A DNA stretch of 5,178 bases, taken from UHGV virus genome UHGV-0384497. One strand, written 5' to 3'. Within the stretch, counting starts at the first letter, position 1. Each line of letters begins with the position of its first letter. Below the pieces are notes generated by a model. That model saw nothing but the letters and a program-made list of their open reading frames with translations, ran no database searches and was not told the origin of the DNA. Shown here one piece after another: positions 1 through 5,178 of this stretch. Both the position numbers and the translations under genes were made by a program. The stretch is from a virus.

Positions 1-729
1 TCGCGCGATATTTCTAAAGAGAAGTTATCAGTTGATTTTGTGACTTGTCACCCAGATAATCGTGTGTTCTCGTTTCAAAATTCTAGGCCAGATCTTTGTC
101 GTATACAAATGATTGGTAATATCATTGGTGTTGGTGCTGTTGGTACTTCGAAGTTCTTGCTAGATGGTTATGCTTGGATTCCAAAGAGTGCTTTGACACA
201 AGGTTCTGATATCATGTTCTCTATTTCTAAGGAATCTATAGCTAATGATCCTAAGTTATTATTTATTGGTCAACTCTCATCTTTTCAAGATGTTGATAGT
301 GTTAGTTTAGTTCCTGGTCGAGTTGATCAAAATACTGTATTTTTCAATACTTTTACTTTAGGTACTGATGTATCTGATCGGTTTGATTTGGACAGAAATA
401 CTATCATTGAGATTCACGAAGATGATTATTTAATTAGAGCTTCGTTAGGTTCATTATCTTATATTTCCTTTGGAGGTGAGACTTATCCGTTTTTGCTTGA
501 TGTTCGTAAGACTATACAGTTAACTAATGCGATGGATTCCTCTTCTATTGCTATTTTTAATGATGGCGAGAATGGTTTTAAGCAATTGGTTTCTTTTCCT
601 CTAGGGTTTTATACTCTTATGCCTTATGATACTGCTAAGCCTATGGATAATCACGTATTGTCTGTGACTTACAATAATGTGGACGTATTGCGTCCGCTTG
701 CTCGTTATGATGGTAATGTTTTAAGGTGA
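1..729 (+). CDS. Major capsid protein VP1 (F-like), C-terminal portion. Frame 1 is open from nt 1, so the true start lies outside the window; it is most likely the continuation of the ORF beginning at 3997 on a circular genome.
   Basis: Frame 1 is open from nt 1 (SRDISKEKLSVDFV...), so the GTG at 40 in the ORF track is not the real start. It ends at TAA 727-729, 6 nt before the VP2 start. In microviruses VP1 immediately precedes VP2. Its phase matches the VP1 N-terminal ORF that runs off the 3' end of the window. Confidence 0.75.
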   Translation, partial: SRDISKEKLSVDFVTCHPDNRVFSFQNSRPDLCRIQMIGNIIGVGAVGTSKFLLDGYAWIPKSALTQGSDIMFSISKESIANDPKLLFIGQLSSFQDVDSVSLVPGRVDQNTVFFNTFTLGTDVSDRFDLDRNTIIEIHEDDYLIRASLGSLSYISFGGETYPFLLDVRKTIQLTNAMDSSSIAIFNDGENGFKQLVSFPLGFYTLMPYDTAKPMDNHVLSVTYNNVDVLRPLARYDGNVLR

Positions 730-735
730 TAAGTT

Positions 736-1773
736 ATGGATCCCGTTACTATTGCAGGTCTTGCAGGTGCAGGCGCTAGTCTTGTCGGAGGTCTTATAAA
801 TAATGCTTGGTCTGATGCTCGTACAGAGAAACAGTACAGGCAAATGAATGAGATGCAAGATAAGATGAACGCATATAATGCGCCCGTTGCTCAAATGGCT
901 CGCTTGCGTGCGGCTGGATTGAATCCTAATCTTGTGTATGCTAATGGCGGTGCTGTTATACAGTCCGCTGTTGGTAATGCTCCCCAGCCTGCCCATACTA
1001 CTCCGATTGATACACAAGGAGTACTTCAGATGGTGCAGACGATTGTCGGAGGTATGCTAGAAAAGGATAAGATACAAGCTAGTAAGGAGATGCAGTCAGA
1101 GCAGATTACAGCTGATAAGGAGATTTCGGAAGCTAAGAATACCACAACTAAAGAGGTTACAGGTATGCAGACTAAGTCTTCAGAGCGTAATGTCGATGTT
1201 CAGACTCAATCTAATGAGAATATAGCTACTGAACGTAATAAGACTGAGAAAGAGATGAACACAGCTCGGATTCAATCTAATGAACAGATTGAATTTGCTA
1301 AGCTTTCCGAGAGTGCTCGTCAGGCTGATATGCGTAATGCTATTGATCGTGCGCATGTTGTTATAGATCAGTTTTTGGCTAGTGTAGCTAAAGAGCGTGC
1401 AGATGCTGATGTAGATGAGTCTCGTAGTCGTAAAGCGTTGAATGAACAACAGTATAGGTTACACGAATCACTTGATGAATTGACTCTTGCTGTTGAACGT
1501 GGTAAGATACGAGAATATCAGATTCGTAATGGTATTACTGAGATTGAGAATTTCTTGTCTCGTCCTGGTTATATTGATACGAAGCAATTAGCGACTTTGT
1601 ATGATAAATATGGTATTTCTTATACGCAGGAGCAGTTGAATTCTATTAAATCTGTTTTTGATAATCTCCATAATAGAACCGAGATTGAATCTGTTATGTC
1701 TAATAATTATGTAACGCCGTTTATAGGTGAGCTTTCAGATGCTATTCTTAAGCCTTTGTCGGTGTTAAAGTAA
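736..1773 (+). CDS. VP2 / H-like DNA pilot (minor capsid) protein
   Basis: 345 aa. The N-terminus is Gly/Ala-rich and hydrophobic (MDPVTIAGLAGAGASLVGGLINN). An AGLNPNLVY motif follows, which as I recall is typical of gokushovirus-type VP2. The centre is a long Q/E/K/T-rich, low-complexity, predicted coiled-coil region. It sits directly downstream of VP1. Its ATG has the only strong Shine-Dalgarno (SD, ribosome-binding) sequence in the genome (AAGGTGA, about 8 nt upstream). Confidence 0.75.
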   Translation: MDPVTIAGLAGAGASLVGGLINNAWSDARTEKQYRQMNEMQDKMNAYNAPVAQMARLRAAGLNPNLVYANGGAVIQSAVGNAPQPAHTTPIDTQGVLQMVQTIVGGMLEKDKIQASKEMQSEQITADKEISEAKNTTTKEVTGMQTKSSERNVDVQTQSNENIATERNKTEKEMNTARIQSNEQIEFAKLSESARQADMRNAIDRAHVVIDQFLASVAKERADADVDESRSRKALNEQQYRLHESLDELTLAVERGKIREYQIRNGITEIENFLSRPGYIDTKQLATLYDKYGISYTQEQLNSIKSVFDNLHNRTEIESVMSNNYVTPFIGELSDAILKPLSVLK

Positions 1774-1806
1774 TTGTTATCTTTGCAGATATCAAATTTA
1801 TTATAT

Positions 1807-1938
1807 ATGGCTTCTATACTTATCAGCATTATGTATGCTATTCCCCTCGTTTTGCTGTTGCTTGCTATGATTTATGGCATTATACGGCTTATTAAGTTAA
1901 TCATTAAAGAGTTTCGTCATGGAAAAAAGAAGTTATAA
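1807..1938 (+). CDS. Hypothetical 43-aa single-pass membrane peptide (MASILISIMYAIPLVLLLLAMIYGIIRLIKLIIKEFRHGKKKL). Candidate lysis or accessory peptide.
   Basis: ATG at 1807 and TAA at 1936-1938. A hydrophobic stretch of about 25 aa is followed by a basic C-terminal tail. It lies in the 145-nt gap between VP2 and ORF99 and overlaps the ORF99 start by 20 nt in another frame. It is absent from the ORF track, presumably because of its length. A T-rich coding strand inflates the chance of hydrophobic ORFs, so support is weak. Confidence 0.3.
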   Translation: MASILISIMYAIPLVLLLLAMIYGIIRLIKLIIKEFRHGKKKL

Positions 1939-2218
1939 GTATGTGGCTCGTGCGCCACAGAGTGTAGTGTCTGACACTTTACCGAATCAGACTGTAGACT
2001 TGTCTATACTTGTTAAGCAGTTAATGGACGGTCAGGCACTGAATGTTGGATTATCATTGTCTGAGGACACTTCGGATACTTTAGACACTCCAGATATTAC
2101 TAAGTATGATTTCCGTCATATGACAGTATCTGATGTAGATAATCTATTGTCTAAGGTTCAGCCGGTGAAAATTGATCCTGCGCCAGCTGAGACCGGTACG
2201 GCTTCCGTAGCCGATTGA
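1919..2218 (+). CDS. Hypothetical acidic 99-aa protein. It sits in the VP3 (internal scaffolding protein) position, which suggests that function.
   Basis: It lies between VP2 and Rep, as VP3 does in gokushovirus gene order. The C-terminal two-thirds is rich in D/E/S/T (SEDTSDTLDTPDITKYDF...), and scaffolding proteins are typically acidic. I recognise no motif; the call is by position and composition only. Confidence 0.4.
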   Translation: MEKRSYKYVARAPQSVVSDTLPNQTVDLSILVKQLMDGQALNVGLSLSEDTSDTLDTPDITKYDFRHMTVSDVDNLLSKVQPVKIDPAPAETGTASVAD

Positions 2219-2248
2219 TATTAATGGGTGCGGGGGCTGATGGCTTGT

Positions 2249-2287
2249 CCATTGCCCCCCTCACCTCTTTTGAGGTGGGGGCAATGG
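2249..2287. other. GC-rich imperfect stem-loop (about 16 bp stem with a small internal bulge and a TTTT loop). Part of a larger G/C-tract structure (GGGTGCGGGGG at 2226-2236 ... CCGCCCCCCCGCCC at 2313-2326) in an otherwise AT-rich genome.
   Basis: ccattg/caatgg, cccccc/ggggg and acctc/gaggt all pair directly. No U-tract follows, so it is not a canonical intrinsic terminator. The flanking G-run and C-run are partly complementary. Confidence 0.5.
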
Positions 2288-2346
2288 CAATAGCCGAATA
2301 AGTCCTTCGGACCGCCCCCCCGCCCGTTAATTATTACGAGAGAGCA

Positions 2347-2377
2347 GGCGATTACTCCTACTTGATATGTAATCGCC
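2347..2377 (+). promoter_or_regulatory. Putative rolling-circle origin (nick-site hairpin). A perfect 9-bp stem (ggcgattac / gtaatcgcc) encloses a 13-nt loop, tcctACTTGATAT, that carries a 9-mer identical to the phiX174 ori core (CAACTTG^ATATTAATAAC).
   Basis: The inverted repeat is read directly from the sequence. The exact ACTTGATAT match to the phiX174 gene-A origin (nick between G and A) lies in the loop. It sits in the main intergenic region just upstream of the Rep gene. Related copies: TTGATATTAAT at 2215-2225 and CTTGATTATTAAG at 2458-2470. Confidence 0.45.
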
Positions 2378-2381
2378 AAGT

Positions 2382-2414
2382 GACACCACGATACAAATAC
2401 ATTGTGGTGTTGTC
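2382..2414. other. Second intergenic hairpin (7-8 bp stem, acaccac / gtggtgt, with a 14-nt AT-rich loop)
   Basis: Inverted repeat gacaccac ... gtggtgt(t)gtc seen directly in the sequence. Confidence 0.4.
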
Positions 2415-2518
2415 TCTCTAAATAATTTGTAGTACATTTGTGCCATAAGCGGGTAACTCTTGATTATTAAGATTGTAAAAGCCTGCTTTTGGACTAAACG
2501 TATAACTCATTCTGATAA

Positions 2519-3457
2519 ATGCTTTGCGTTAATCAAATACAAGTTTTGAACCCCAAGACGGGTAAATTTATTAAAGTTCCTTGCGGTACTTGTTATGCTT
2601 GTCAAAGTAACAAGCGTTCTTCCTGGATGTTCCGTAATACGGTTGAATTACAGTACTCACAGAGTGCGTTCTTCTGTACTCTTACATACAATGATACTGC
2701 CTTGCTGGGTCTTCCGTATCACGCTTCTTCTCAACTGCGAATGCCCTTGAAATATCATTATCAACGCTGGCTTAAGCGCCTGCGCAAGGCGTTACAGCCT
2801 GCTAAAGTTCGGTATTTCCTCTGTCACGAGTATGGCGATGAGTCTCTACGTCCTCACTATCACGTTATACTGTATCTAGATAGGTCTATGTCTCTCACAG
2901 ATATGCGCCGTCTTATATCTGATACTTGGACTAATGGTAATATACAGTGTGATTATGTCACCCCTGCTAGGATACATTATCTATCTAAGTACGTTACTAA
3001 GCAGTTCCGCAACGTGAAAGTATCTGGTCGTTCAGTGGATTATATATTTAATCATATCTGGGCTAATAGAGCTCTTCAGCATCGTTATATAGTTGAATTC
3101 TACCTCAAAAAGTTTTCTTTTGTTGTAGCTAGTCAAGGCTTAGGTTGTCAGCTCCTGCGGGAGCCTGCTTTTATACGCTGGTTTTGGGATCACCTAGAGC
3201 CAGGCGAATCGTATCCTACTTATGTTATCGGAGGTCACTCTTATACGCTACCGCGTATCTATCTGCGTAAGCTTGTGCCAGATATATGGCGCGAAGCTAT
3301 TACCCCCGATATATCGCCCGAGGCTAAATATGCCCGTATGTCTGATATCGCGTCTGACGCTAATCTAACCGTAAAACAGTATGTGGAAAATGCGCGCTAC
3401 ATACAAGACCGTAAGTCTACCATTATCCGCGCTAATAACAAAAAATCCCCTTTGTAA
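2519..3457 (+). CDS. Replication initiation protein (VP4 / gpA-like rolling-circle HUH endonuclease)
   Basis: 312 aa with all three rolling-circle replication (RCR) motifs. Motif 1 is FFCTLTYN (nt about 2669-2692). Motif 2 (HUH) is RPHYHVILY, with HYH at nt 2855-2863. Motif 3 is YLSKYVTK (nt about 2978-3001), whose two Tyr are spaced Y-x3-Y as in the phiX174 gpA catalytic tyrosines. The N-terminal VPCGTCYACQ Cys cluster is typical of microvirus Rep. Confidence 0.9.
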   Translation: MLCVNQIQVLNPKTGKFIKVPCGTCYACQSNKRSSWMFRNTVELQYSQSAFFCTLTYNDTALLGLPYHASSQLRMPLKYHYQRWLKRLRKALQPAKVRYFLCHEYGDESLRPHYHVILYLDRSMSLTDMRRLISDTWTNGNIQCDYVTPARIHYLSKYVTKQFRNVKVSGRSVDYIFNHIWANRALQHRYIVEFYLKKFSFVVASQGLGCQLLREPAFIRWFWDHLEPGESYPTYVIGGHSYTLPRIYLRKLVPDIWREAITPDISPEAKYARMSDIASDANLTVKQYVENARYIQDRKSTIIRANNKKSPL

Positions 3458-3459
3458 CT

Positions 3460-3588
3460 ATGAAGTTATCAAATCGTAAAATCGGATTCTTCGCTAGGTT
3501 GCGTAAGTTCCGAATCCCTGTGCTACTGCTATTGCTGGCAGTGGTTGTTGTCTGTGTTGCTTTCGGATGGTTTTCTTTTTTAGTCTAG
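3460..3588 (+). CDS. Hypothetical 42-aa peptide (MKLSNRKIGFFARLRKFRIPVLLLLLAVVVVCVAFGWFSFLV). It has an Arg/Lys-rich N-terminus followed by one strong transmembrane-like helix. Candidate single-gene lysis protein, or a J/VP8-like basic DNA-packaging peptide.
   Basis: Its ATG is 2 nt after the Rep stop, and its TAG at 3586-3588 is 6 nt before the ORF132 ATG. It therefore exactly fills an otherwise unexplained 137-nt gap in a compact genome. It is missing from the ORF track, presumably because of its length. Seven basic residues in the first 18 aa are followed by about 24 hydrophobic residues. Confidence 0.4.
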   Translation: MKLSNRKIGFFARLRKFRIPVLLLLLAVVVVCVAFGWFSFLV

Positions 3589-3594
3589 TATCTT

Positions 3595-3993
3595 ATGAAC
3601 ACTTGTAAGTATCGAAATAATCCGTTTAATATACGGTATAATCCCGATAACAATTGGAAAGGTCAGACAGAGCCAAAGAATGGTTTCTGTCAATTTTCGG
3701 AGCTAAAGTACGGAGTTCGTGCCGCTTTTATTCTTGTCTATAACTATCGTAATTTGCACGATGCTTCTACACCTCGTGATATAATACGATATTGGGCACC
3801 GAAAGAAGATGGTAATGATACCGCTGCTTATATATCCTTTGTCTCTCAGCTGTTGAATGAAGATGAGGATATAAATACTACCCTCGAGTATGTCGTTTTG
3901 CTGTACTCAATGTGGCATGTTGAACAAGGTTGGACGCCCTCCATTTGGGAGTTTGCCAAACTGCTGAATTACTCACTAATAGAAGATCTATAA
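3595..3993 (+). CDS. Hypothetical 132-aa protein of unknown function. Located between Rep and VP1; I have no confident homology call.
   Basis: The ATG is the first one after an in-frame stop, and the ORF ends 3 nt before the VP1 ATG. Its composition is not low-complexity and it contains several W/Y/H residues (NPFNIRYNPDNNWKG..., MWHVEQGW). I cannot assign a family from memory. A peptidoglycan-hydrolase or peptidase role is suggested only weakly, by its position next to a candidate membrane peptide. Confidence 0.5.
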   Translation: MNTCKYRNNPFNIRYNPDNNWKGQTEPKNGFCQFSELKYGVRAAFILVYNYRNLHDASTPRDIIRYWAPKEDGNDTAAYISFVSQLLNEDEDINTTLEYVVLLYSMWHVEQGWTPSIWEFAKLLNYSLIEDL

Positions 3994-3996
3994 ACT

Positions 3997-5178
3997 ATGC
4001 CTAATCTAACTAAGTATTCGCTTGACCATGAGGTTCGGTCAAGCTTTGAGATGGGACAGTTAATCCCATTTTTGTGCCAGGAGGTTGTGCCTGGCGATAA
4101 GTATCGCGTACAATCTAGTACGCTTGTGCGTCTCCAGCCTATGTTATCCCCGCTGATGCATAGACTTGATTACTTCCAGAGGTACTATTATGTGCCTTAT
4201 AGGTTGCTTATCCCTAACTATGAACAACTGTTGACTGATCCCGATAGCGGTAATACTGTGCCAGGTATGGATAAGTATTTGCAATATACTGCGCATACCC
4301 TAAAGGAATTGTTCTTGGAGAAACCTTTGTTGGAGTATTTTGGTCTTGCATCGTCATTAGATGGTACACACCCCGATAATGTGATTAAGGATCTTAATGC
4401 TACTCCCCTACTTGCTTATTACCTTATATATAATCATTATTATATGAGGTCAGACCTTGATAAGCGTTATATTGATCAATTGCGCCCCGAAAACTTTACT
4501 AGTGCCGAGTTGCGCAAATACATTGGTAATGTTATGTATGTCAATGAAGGACTTGATTACTTTACTAGCGCTAAGACCTCTACACAGTATGGTAATATGG
4601 TACAGTTGGATATGGACGGTAATAATACCATTACTGTGCCTGAGATGCGTCTCGCTGAGCGTTTGCAGTCGTTTAGAGAGAGACTTCTCCGAGTTGGTGG
4701 TAAGTATGTGAATTATATTAAGGAGTTCTTTGGTGTCGAGCCCCTTGATGCTCGTGTACAGATACCTAAGTATCTAGGTGGTGACTCCTATGTTCTTAAT
4801 GTGTCTGATGTTGACCAGACAGCTCCCTCTGAGCTTGGTTCCGTTGGTGAAAGTTATGGCAAATCAGTGTCTGTTAATCGTACGGGTCAGATCGAGTATG
4901 ACGTTTACGAGCATGGTCTAATTATAGGCTTGCATTTTGTCCGTCCTCGTCCGTCTAATATCGGCGGTTGTCCTAAGATGTTTACACGACGTACGTATTT
5001 CGACTTCTTTAACCCGCATTTTTCTGCTCTTGGTTATCAAGAGATACAGGCGCGCGAACTTGATGTTGCCCGTCCGAAAGATGAAGCTTTCGGTTACGTC
5101 CCTCGCTATGATGAGTATCGTTATGGTAATGATATAGTATCTGGAGACTTTAAGCGGTCTCTTGATTATTGGCATATG
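3997..5178 (+). CDS. Major capsid protein VP1 (F-like), N-terminal 394 aa. There is no stop in the window. It continues at nt 1 in the same phase if the genome is circular, giving about 636 aa in total.
   Basis: Translation begins MPNLTKYSLDHEVRSSFEMGQLIPFLCQEVVPGDKYRVQSSTLVRLQPMLSPLMHRLD...YYVPYRLL. This matches the conserved microvirus VP1 N-terminal architecture (FxMGxLxP...VxPGD...PMxxP). Further along, LAERLQSFRERLLRVGGKYVNYIKEFFGVEP matches the conserved VP1 'erla-RGGSRY-Wl-shFGV' region. The ORF runs to the last base of the window in frame 1. Confidence 0.85.
   Translation, partial: MPNLTKYSLDHEVRSSFEMGQLIPFLCQEVVPGDKYRVQSSTLVRLQPMLSPLMHRLDYFQRYYYVPYRLLIPNYEQLLTDPDSGNTVPGMDKYLQYTAHTLKELFLEKPLLEYFGLASSLDGTHPDNVIKDLNATPLLAYYLIYNHYYMRSDLDKRYIDQLRPENFTSAELRKYIGNVMYVNEGLDYFTSAKTSTQYGNMVQLDMDGNNTITVPEMRLAERLQSFRERLLRVGGKYVNYIKEFFGVEPLDARVQIPKYLGGDSYVLNVSDVDQTAPSELGSVGESYGKSVSVNRTGQIEYDVYEHGLIIGLHFVRPRPSNIGGCPKMFTRRTYFDFFNPHFSALGYQEIQARELDVARPKDEAFGYVPRYDEYRYGNDIVSGDFKRSLDYWHM

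Follow-up and report, generated by a model that had tools for sequence, protein, structure and literature searches.

A CTTG-loop hairpin and downstream TGACAC box as the probable viral-strand replication origin of a Bacteroidales-associated microvirus

Genome organisation and host association

The window analysed here, the whole 5178-base stretch of UHGV virus genome UHGV-0384497, is a complete-looking circular microvirus genome with all of its genes on the + strand. The gene for the major capsid protein (Pfam Phage_F) wraps around the ends of the stretch (3997-5178 and 1-729, +) and is followed by the pilot protein gene (736-1773, +), a series of small ORFs and a 99-amino-acid ORF (1919-2218, +). 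Next comes a gene-free region of 300 nt (2219-2518), directly 5' of the gene for Rep, an HUH rolling-circle endonuclease (2519-3457, +; Pfam PF23343, E = 1.5e-18). It is the single large ORF-free stretch of the genome, as the initial annotation had held. A 42-amino-acid ORF and a 132-amino-acid ORF complete the gene set, the latter (3595-3993) lying between Rep and the capsid gene. The 132-amino-acid ORF returned no Pfam match; it may encode a divergent lysis enzyme, because in more distant relatives (L015-L018) the gene for a Peptidase_M15_3 protein immediately precedes that of the capsid.

The close relatives, with Reps 84-98% identical to that of the window, comprise five GenBank genomes from human samples, two of them labelled vaginal secretion, and five IMG/VR contigs. 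A search of genome contigs with the window Rep as single query returned a single prophage, whose Rep is 98% identical; the contig that holds it (NZ_UQDF01000014; hereafter L104) belongs to an uncultured Porphyromonas MAG. An integrated, near-identical phage suggests both Porphyromonas as host genus and a temperate lifestyle. As this prophage sits in a Porphyromonas MAG, the window phage is classed here as a temperate, Bacteroidales-associated (alpavirus-like) microvirus and not as a gokushovirus in the strict sense, so the earlier label 'gokushovirus-like' does not hold for the phage; the element described below is nevertheless present in true gokushoviruses too.

A hairpin with a phiX174-like loop

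Within the gene-free region lies a perfect inverted repeat on the + strand, the 5' arm GGCGATTAC (2347-2355) pairing with the 3' arm GTAATCGCC (2369-2377). By direct reading and by repeat finder, the arms are 9 nt long, 100% complementary and 13 nt apart. The intervening loop, TCCTACTTGATAT (2356-2368), contains a core CTTG (2361-2364), at the end of which Rep is predicted to cut, between G2364 and A2365; the 3' arm carries a G and a C (G15 and C16 of the family consensus below, at 2375-2376) that are conserved family-wide. The 9-mer ACTTGATAT (2360-2368) lies in this loop and occurs exactly once in the whole window. Stem and 9-mer had thus been placed correctly, to the base, by the initial annotation. 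When folded as single-stranded DNA, positions 2340-2385 form exactly this hairpin (-8.6 kcal/mol, z = -4.0, with none of 200 shuffles as good), and it is kept when the entire 300-nt intergenic region is folded (region z = -8.4). Dinucleotide shuffles yield 0.1 exact copies of the 9-mer per genome, and 0.3 perfect hairpins of at least 9 bp per genome against three observed, so that finding the 9-mer in a loop of this kind goes far beyond chance. The stem is followed by AAGTGACACC, and Rfam covariance models gave no match to the element at E <= 1.

That the hairpin follows the structural-gene block might mark it as an intrinsic transcription terminator. It has, however, a 13-nt loop and no T-run, where such a terminator has a GC-rich stem, a short loop and a T-run, and a terminator scan makes no call here; a palindrome arisen by chance is excluded by the shuffles together with the conservation and covariation set out below. 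For the terminator and the chance palindrome alike, the probability that remains is negligible.

Several other features share the region or resemble the loop. A GC-rich compound hairpin (2220-2331, +; arms 2220-2237/2314-2331, 2249-2259/2277-2287 and 2258-2267/2272-2281, from repeat finder and fold) stands directly after the last structural gene and directly upstream of the CTTG-loop hairpin. GC-rich hairpins with small loops, some of GCGAAGC type, occur no more than 62 nt upstream of the corresponding hairpin in 37 of 88 instances, compared with 8 of 440 shuffles. Such hairpins, in the window that at 2220-2331, are candidate terminators and/or complementary-strand origins. Downstream, TACATTTG (2433-2440) belongs to a stretch without variation among the six close relatives (alignment A1); it fits TAnnTTTG, the -7 promoter box of Bacteroides type, and probably serves as promoter of Rep. 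A near-match to the 9-mer, ACTTGTTAT, lies at 2588-2596 inside Rep, in the codons of a Cys-rich CGTCYAC motif, and resembles the CTTG|TT variant of the loop. It was considered as a phiX-like origin inside the gene and set aside: it has neither hairpin nor TGACA, and its partial score against the covariance model described below is weak (E = 4.5).

Conservation from close relatives to classical phages

Among the close relatives the stem is nearly invariant, PV067916 having a C-to-T change at the innermost position of the 5' arm, and the sequences are too similar to be informative on structure. Their loop reads TACTTGA(T/A/C)AT, and several carry ACTTGACAT or ACTTGAAAT instead of the exact 9-mer. 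To require the 9-mer in relatives is consequently too strict, as position 8 differs even between close relatives: what is conserved family-wide is CTTG followed by A or T and then T, and the exact 9-mer is not the conserved unit.

More distant genomes are more telling. The three relatives with 55-61% identical Reps, found by protein search and including two prophages, all keep TACTTGATAT in a hairpin loop. Compared with the window, the stem of L013 (AGCGATTAC/GTAATCGCT) has a compensatory change from G-C to A-T, and that of L014 and L011 (GCGGTTAC/GTAACCGC) one from A-T to G-C. In relatives with Reps about 33% identical the stems are wholly different (for example CTGGCAAATAT and TCTGGACATT) around CTTACTTGATAT or GACTTGATAT. 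The check originally proposed for the element, namely conservation of hairpin and motif with covariation of the stem in relatives, was thus run without refuting it: both persist as Rep identity falls from 98% to about 27%, and the stem shows compensatory changes.

A wider sample was made up of 80 gokushovirus-like genomes from IMG/VR, each with a Rep alignment. Their capsid proteins are nearer to VP1 of Chp2 and phiMH2K (30-54% identity) than to the capsid protein of the window, so that the sample takes in true gokushoviruses. The element is present in roughly 70 of the 80, and most have one hairpin, on the coding strand, whose perfect stem measures 8-15 bp and whose loop contains CTTGAT; about ten are without a clear match, some of them being partial contigs. 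All four classical phages inspected by eye (Chp1, Chp2, SpV4 and phiMH2K) have an intergenic hairpin of this type: Chp2 at 2904 (TCTACTTGAT), SpV4 at 512 (ATTACTTGTTATA), phiMH2K at 3296 (...CTACTTGTTGTAA) and Chp1 (L102, D00624) at 2750-2777 (CCTCTTGGCT). The last, with a 9-bp stem and CTCTTGG in the loop, lies directly after VP3 and is the Chp1 counterpart of the element. The GenBank record of Chp1 (D00624) annotates four 'hairpin-like structures', and this hairpin is not among them.

Two observations concern the assemblies themselves. Firstly, the IMG/VR contigs L029 (8468 nt) and L064 (7497 nt) are head-to-tail concatemers, in which the genes and the element each occur twice. Secondly, in the circular contigs L019, L049, L059, L063 and L098 the assembly break or overlap falls within about 50 nt of the element, slightly above expectation, which may reflect an effect of the palindrome on assembly.

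A palindrome in a phage whose relatives are prophages could also be read as a dif-like site for XerC/D recombination, serving the lysogeny of Bacteroidales microviruses; proviruses of this kind in Bacteroidetes are flanked by dif-like sites (PMC3091885). The attachment site can, however, be mapped separately. Positions 2493..5178 and 1..2516 of the window are colinear with the Porphyromonas MAG prophage (Rep 98% identical, DNA about 90-94%), and a 23-nt core, ACTAAAC.T...AACTCATTCTGA, occurs at both prophage junctions (L104 7975-7998 and 13162-13184). Because this core is repeated at both junctions of a colinear prophage, the attachment site is placed at window 2493-2515, where the dif-like core ACTAAACGTATAACTCATTCTGA (no strand assigned) lies just upstream of the Rep start codon and is distinct from the hairpin; its reverse complement ends in TTATGTTTAGT, which resembles a XerD arm. 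The mapped junctions contradict the hairpin as integration site, since they lie some 120 nt from it and leave it intact inside the prophage. Moreover, the element is present in the lytic phages Chp2, SpV4 and phiMH2K, and its loop of 8-18 nt with a CTTG core is unlike the 11+6+11 layout of dif. Recombination by XerC/D is hence scarcely credible as the function of the hairpin. On the prophages themselves, L011 (5176-5694, 5814-5909) and L014 (5622-6095) carry an HTH repressor-like gene that the window is without, L011 also has a degenerate duplicate of the 5' end of this gene, and both adjoin a host DUF4301 gene.

The TGACAC box, its spacing and its strand

The hairpin is one half of a larger element. 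A second conserved half, which the initial annotation missed whilst describing hairpin and loop motif correctly, is the box TGACACC (2381-2387, +), 16 nt after the predicted cut and a candidate for the Rep-binding half of an origin. TGACA(C/G) follows the hairpins of relatives and sampled genomes alike. Counted from the G of CTTG to the T of TGACA, the spacing on the plus strand takes two values, 16 nt (74 instances, and the value of the window) and 17 nt (19 instances). As a linear motif, CTTG-N16/17-TGACA occurs 93 times on the coding strand against six on the other. In the classical gokushoviruses the box is degenerate, variants replacing TGACA (TGATA in Chp2, TGACG in SpV4, CGACA in Chp1, none in phiMH2K), and TGACA was dropped as a requirement there.

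The 65 unique instances with a spacing of 16 give the consensus (t)(a)CTTG|ATATAT.AGTGC..A.TGACACCA. Of these instances, 53 have A and 10 have T at position +1 after the CTTG fixed by the motif, and 57 have T at +2. Among the positions that the search motif left free, G15, C16 and A19 are strongly kept: counted from the C of CTTG, G stands at +15 in 57 of 65 and C at +16 in 60 of 65, and beyond the box C, C and A are present in 54, 46 and 45 of 65. CTTG is unpaired in every instance, with loops of 8-18 nt and a 3' arm that starts 1-7 nt past the predicted cut. In the window, the TGACAC box also serves as 5' arm of a second hairpin on the + strand, ACACCACGAT / ATTGTGGTGT (2383-2392 / 2401-2410; repeat finder and fold). 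Inverted repeats of the type TGACAC...GTGTCA, of at least 5 bp, accompany 36 of 88 instances compared with 39 of 440 shuffles (for example in L015, L039, L060, L080, L089 and L097), and could form a dimeric Rep-binding site or a second hairpin.

Such repeats look like the operator of a dimeric protein, and in the window clade the element lies 158 nt upstream of Rep beside the conserved promoter-like box, which would suit an operator for Rep transcription. The position relative to Rep is, however, clade-dependent. It is 50-330 nt upstream in some clades, and in most clades other than that of the window the element does not adjoin Rep, being about 1.2 kb upstream or downstream of it; the earlier description 'just 5' of Rep' is accurate for the window clade and fails elsewhere. 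Each genome has a single copy, nearly always in non-coding DNA, and one non-coding element per genome at any place with respect to Rep points to a cis-acting replication site and not to a Rep operator. A signal for termination only, or for packaging, instead of initiation, would be more a refinement than a rival, because in phiX-type replication the sites of initiation, termination and packaging-coupled cleavage are one sequence. Taken together, these readings as operator, terminal or packaging signal in place of an initiation site seem to us very improbable.

Two gokushovirus-like genomes, L031 (3905-3955, -) and L047 (1540-1590, -), do not fit the pattern, as they have the full element antisense to both the Rep and the capsid genes; for an origin, this calls for packaging of the antisense strand, unless the assemblies are wrong.

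Selection on stem structure

Covariation of the stem was assessed with the test anchored on the linear motif alone, such that circularity is avoided. In 82 of 86 unique instances the sequence forms its own stem of at least 7 bp (median 10); when partners are permuted, each 5' flank being paired with the 3' arm of another genome, the median is 4. In a gap-free alignment of 19 distant sequences, without the window clade, each of the 11 pairs shows compensatory changes, and covariation is 0.657 compared with 0.163 in shuffles (0/500 as high) and 0.14 or less with slid partners. When 72 distinct sequences are aligned by the model, 88% of cells are paired and covariation reaches 0.732 against 0.179; the anchor-based test is the cleaner of the two, since this alignment leans towards the model. 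Selection thus acts on the structure of the stem, not on its sequence.

A covariance model (R1), built from the 19 distant genomes with the window clade left out, finds the whole element in the window as one full-length match (2340-2390, +; 34.7 bits, E = 5.1e-7), the next best hit having E = 1.2. Over 89 sources it returns 74 matches, 72 of them on the coding strand, and it also finds the elements of SpV4 and Chp2; the phiX174 origin and the Chp1 hairpin are not detected by it at E <= 1. The window has each of the features that define the R1 family: a stem of 7-15 bp, an unpaired CTTG in the loop, TGACA 16-17 nt past the G, and location on the coding strand.

Rep and the comparison with known origins

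The window Rep carries the motifs FFCTLTY, RPHYHVILY and HYLSKYVTK, with Tyr154 and Tyr158 in the last; both tyrosines are invariant in 28 homologues. In hhalign it aligns with phiX174 protein A across three HUH-endonuclease motifs (95% probability, E = 2e-8), HYLSKYVTK falling on FYVAKYVNK of phiX with both catalytic tyrosines matched. By this alignment Rep is a two-tyrosine homologue of protein A, and it is the enzyme predicted to cut the element.

In phiX174 the origin of viral-strand synthesis is annotated at 4306 (J02482), within CCCCCAACTTG|ATATTAATAACACTATAGACCAC, which agrees with the nick site given by the initial annotation. Ten of the 11 bases around the cut of the phiX174/Bullavirinae origin, the 30-nt gpA recognition sequence CAACTTG|ATATTAATAACACTATAGACCAC, are the same in the window. 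Both sites are on the viral (coding) strand, and the Reps are homologous two-tyrosine enzymes. At 16 nt past the cut phiX174 has aGACcAC, the same spacing as the TGACAC of the window, and there the resemblance ends: its AT-rich spacer and the right-hand part of its recognition sequence, TTAATAACACTATAGACCAC, do not occur in the window, only GAC at equal spacing being common. The phiX174 site lies inside gene A and has no inverted repeat at the cut, whereas the window element is intergenic with its motif in a hairpin loop. As the phiX site has no hairpin and R1 misses it, the likeness rests on a short motif and its spacing; and as that site is hairpin-less and intragenic with a different right half, the element falls outside the phiX 30-nt origin family as defined, and represents a variation on the phiX origin, not a replica.

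A second comparison is with plasmids of the pC194/pUB110 group, whose Reps have one tyrosine and a glutamate where the window Rep has two tyrosines. The double-strand origins of these plasmids share with the window a CTTG|ATA nick region and a rolling-circle HUH initiator, CTTGATA being their ori signature (PMC5031790), as in published origin sequences of the family (...TTCTTATCTTGATA...; PMC7072734). Their conserved upstream TTCTTTCTTAT is absent from the window, and the consensus CTT(G)TTCTTTCTTATCTTGATA is not matched beyond CTTGATA; the element is no member of the pC194 origin family.

In architecture, the nearest parallels are the origins of CRESS-DNA viruses (circo-, gemini- and nanoviruses) and of the pT181/pMV158 plasmids, which likewise have a variable, covarying stem, a conserved nick site in the loop and an adjacent candidate Rep-binding element. 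Their loops, of the TAGTATT|AC or TAATATT|AC types, are unrelated to that of the window, their Reps, which belong to another clade, have a single tyrosine and are often fused to a helicase, and their binding sites are iterons in place of a TGACAC box at fixed distance. The window shows the general layout of HUH hairpin-loop origins: its inverted repeat presents a nick motif in the loop, and the same replicon encodes an HUH Rep. To judge from sequence, then, the element is arranged as a hairpin-loop rolling-circle origin with a loop of the phiX174/pC194 class.

The closest report concerns two clades with tiny genomes, the reekeekee- and roodoodooviruses. Their intergenic regions hold conserved hairpins close to Rep, in which the loop is conserved and the stem changes in a compensatory way; the function of these hairpins was left open (Olo Ndela et al. 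2022, PMC9865509). They are likened here to the window element by their description. The authors discuss complementary-strand priming, and the available passages draw no link to CTTG or to the phiX cleavage site.

Complementary-strand priming is also the strongest rival for the window: a hairpin in the incoming single strand would recruit host primase or primosome, as do the hairpins of phiX174 and G4. Single-stranded phages need such an origin, usually an intergenic hairpin; the window region is very structured; and this role was proposed, and left open, for the hairpins of the two other microvirus clades (PMC9865509). Set against this, the part that is conserved is CTTG(A/T)T, like the Rep cleavage sites of phiX174 and pC194, together with a TGACAC at fixed distance, and host priming signals are unlikely to be constant across Chlamydia, Spiroplasma, Bdellovibrio and Bacteroidales hosts. 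The neighbouring GC-rich hairpins are better candidates for that function. We therefore regard a complementary-strand origin at this hairpin as unlikely, though a dual role, as viral-strand origin and in complementary-strand priming, is possible.

A probable viral-strand origin

The reading we prefer is that the hairpin and the TGACAC box are most probably the viral (+) strand origin of rolling-circle replication of the window microvirus. Several lines of evidence lead to it: 1) the loop motif is the phiX174 gpA cleavage core (CTACTTG|ATAT in the window, CAACTTG|ATAT in phiX); 2) homology of the Rep family to phiX174 A takes in motifs 1-3 and both catalytic tyrosines; 3) the element is deeply conserved and strand-specific, with a covarying stem, and occurs once per genome, almost always in non-coding DNA; and 4) a model built without the window clade finds the element of the window uniquely. 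The origin interpretation first given to the locus is supported in this by conservation, strand bias and Rep homology.

By analogy with phiX174, where the cut falls at G4305|A4306, cleavage is predicted between G2364 and A2365. Extrusion of the inverted repeat as a cruciform, or its melting, in supercoiled replicative-form duplex DNA would expose CTTG|AT single-stranded in the loop, and the TGACAC box 16 nt downstream, the candidate docking half of the origin, would position Rep such that Y154 or Y158 could make the cut. Rep would become linked to the 5' phosphate of the A, leaving the 3'-OH of the G to prime synthesis by host polymerase. After one round, the regenerated site would refold as a hairpin in the displaced single strand, where the second tyrosine could cut it, and the strand would be ligated to a circle for packaging.

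A broader and more tentative proposal, to which we give somewhat less than even credence, is that a single two-part hairpin origin, undescribed before, is common to all microviruses outside the Bullavirinae, be they gokushoviruses, alpavirus-like phages of Bacteroidales or members of several unnamed clades. Its parts would be a stem of free sequence with CTTG|(A/T)T in the loop and TGACAC at +16/17, and it would be the ancestral form of the 30-nt phiX174 origin. No mapped or predicted replication origin for microviruses outside the phiX174 group was found in the searchable literature, nor any earlier description of the CTTG-loop element in searchable full texts, and older subscription papers may mention it. 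If the proposal is true, the shared origin would act as a strand marker that tells which strand is packaged, including in L031 and L047, which would then appear to package the antisense strand.

Microviruses are among the commonest phages of gut, vaginal, marine and soil viromes, and for thousands of metagenomic genomes the element offers a natural zero coordinate and a strand call. A signature with one site per genome provides an oligonucleotide-level target for Rep nicking assays and would let phagemids and minimal replicons be designed, both for gokushoviruses and for phages of Bacteroidales or Porphyromonas. The fixed spacing of 16-17 nt that separates box and cut constrains the docking of Rep in a way that can be tested. 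The element also relates the hairpin-less origin of phiX174 to the hairpin type usual among other HUH replicons, and the location of the origin in microviruses outside the phiX group becomes a directly testable, family-wide prediction.
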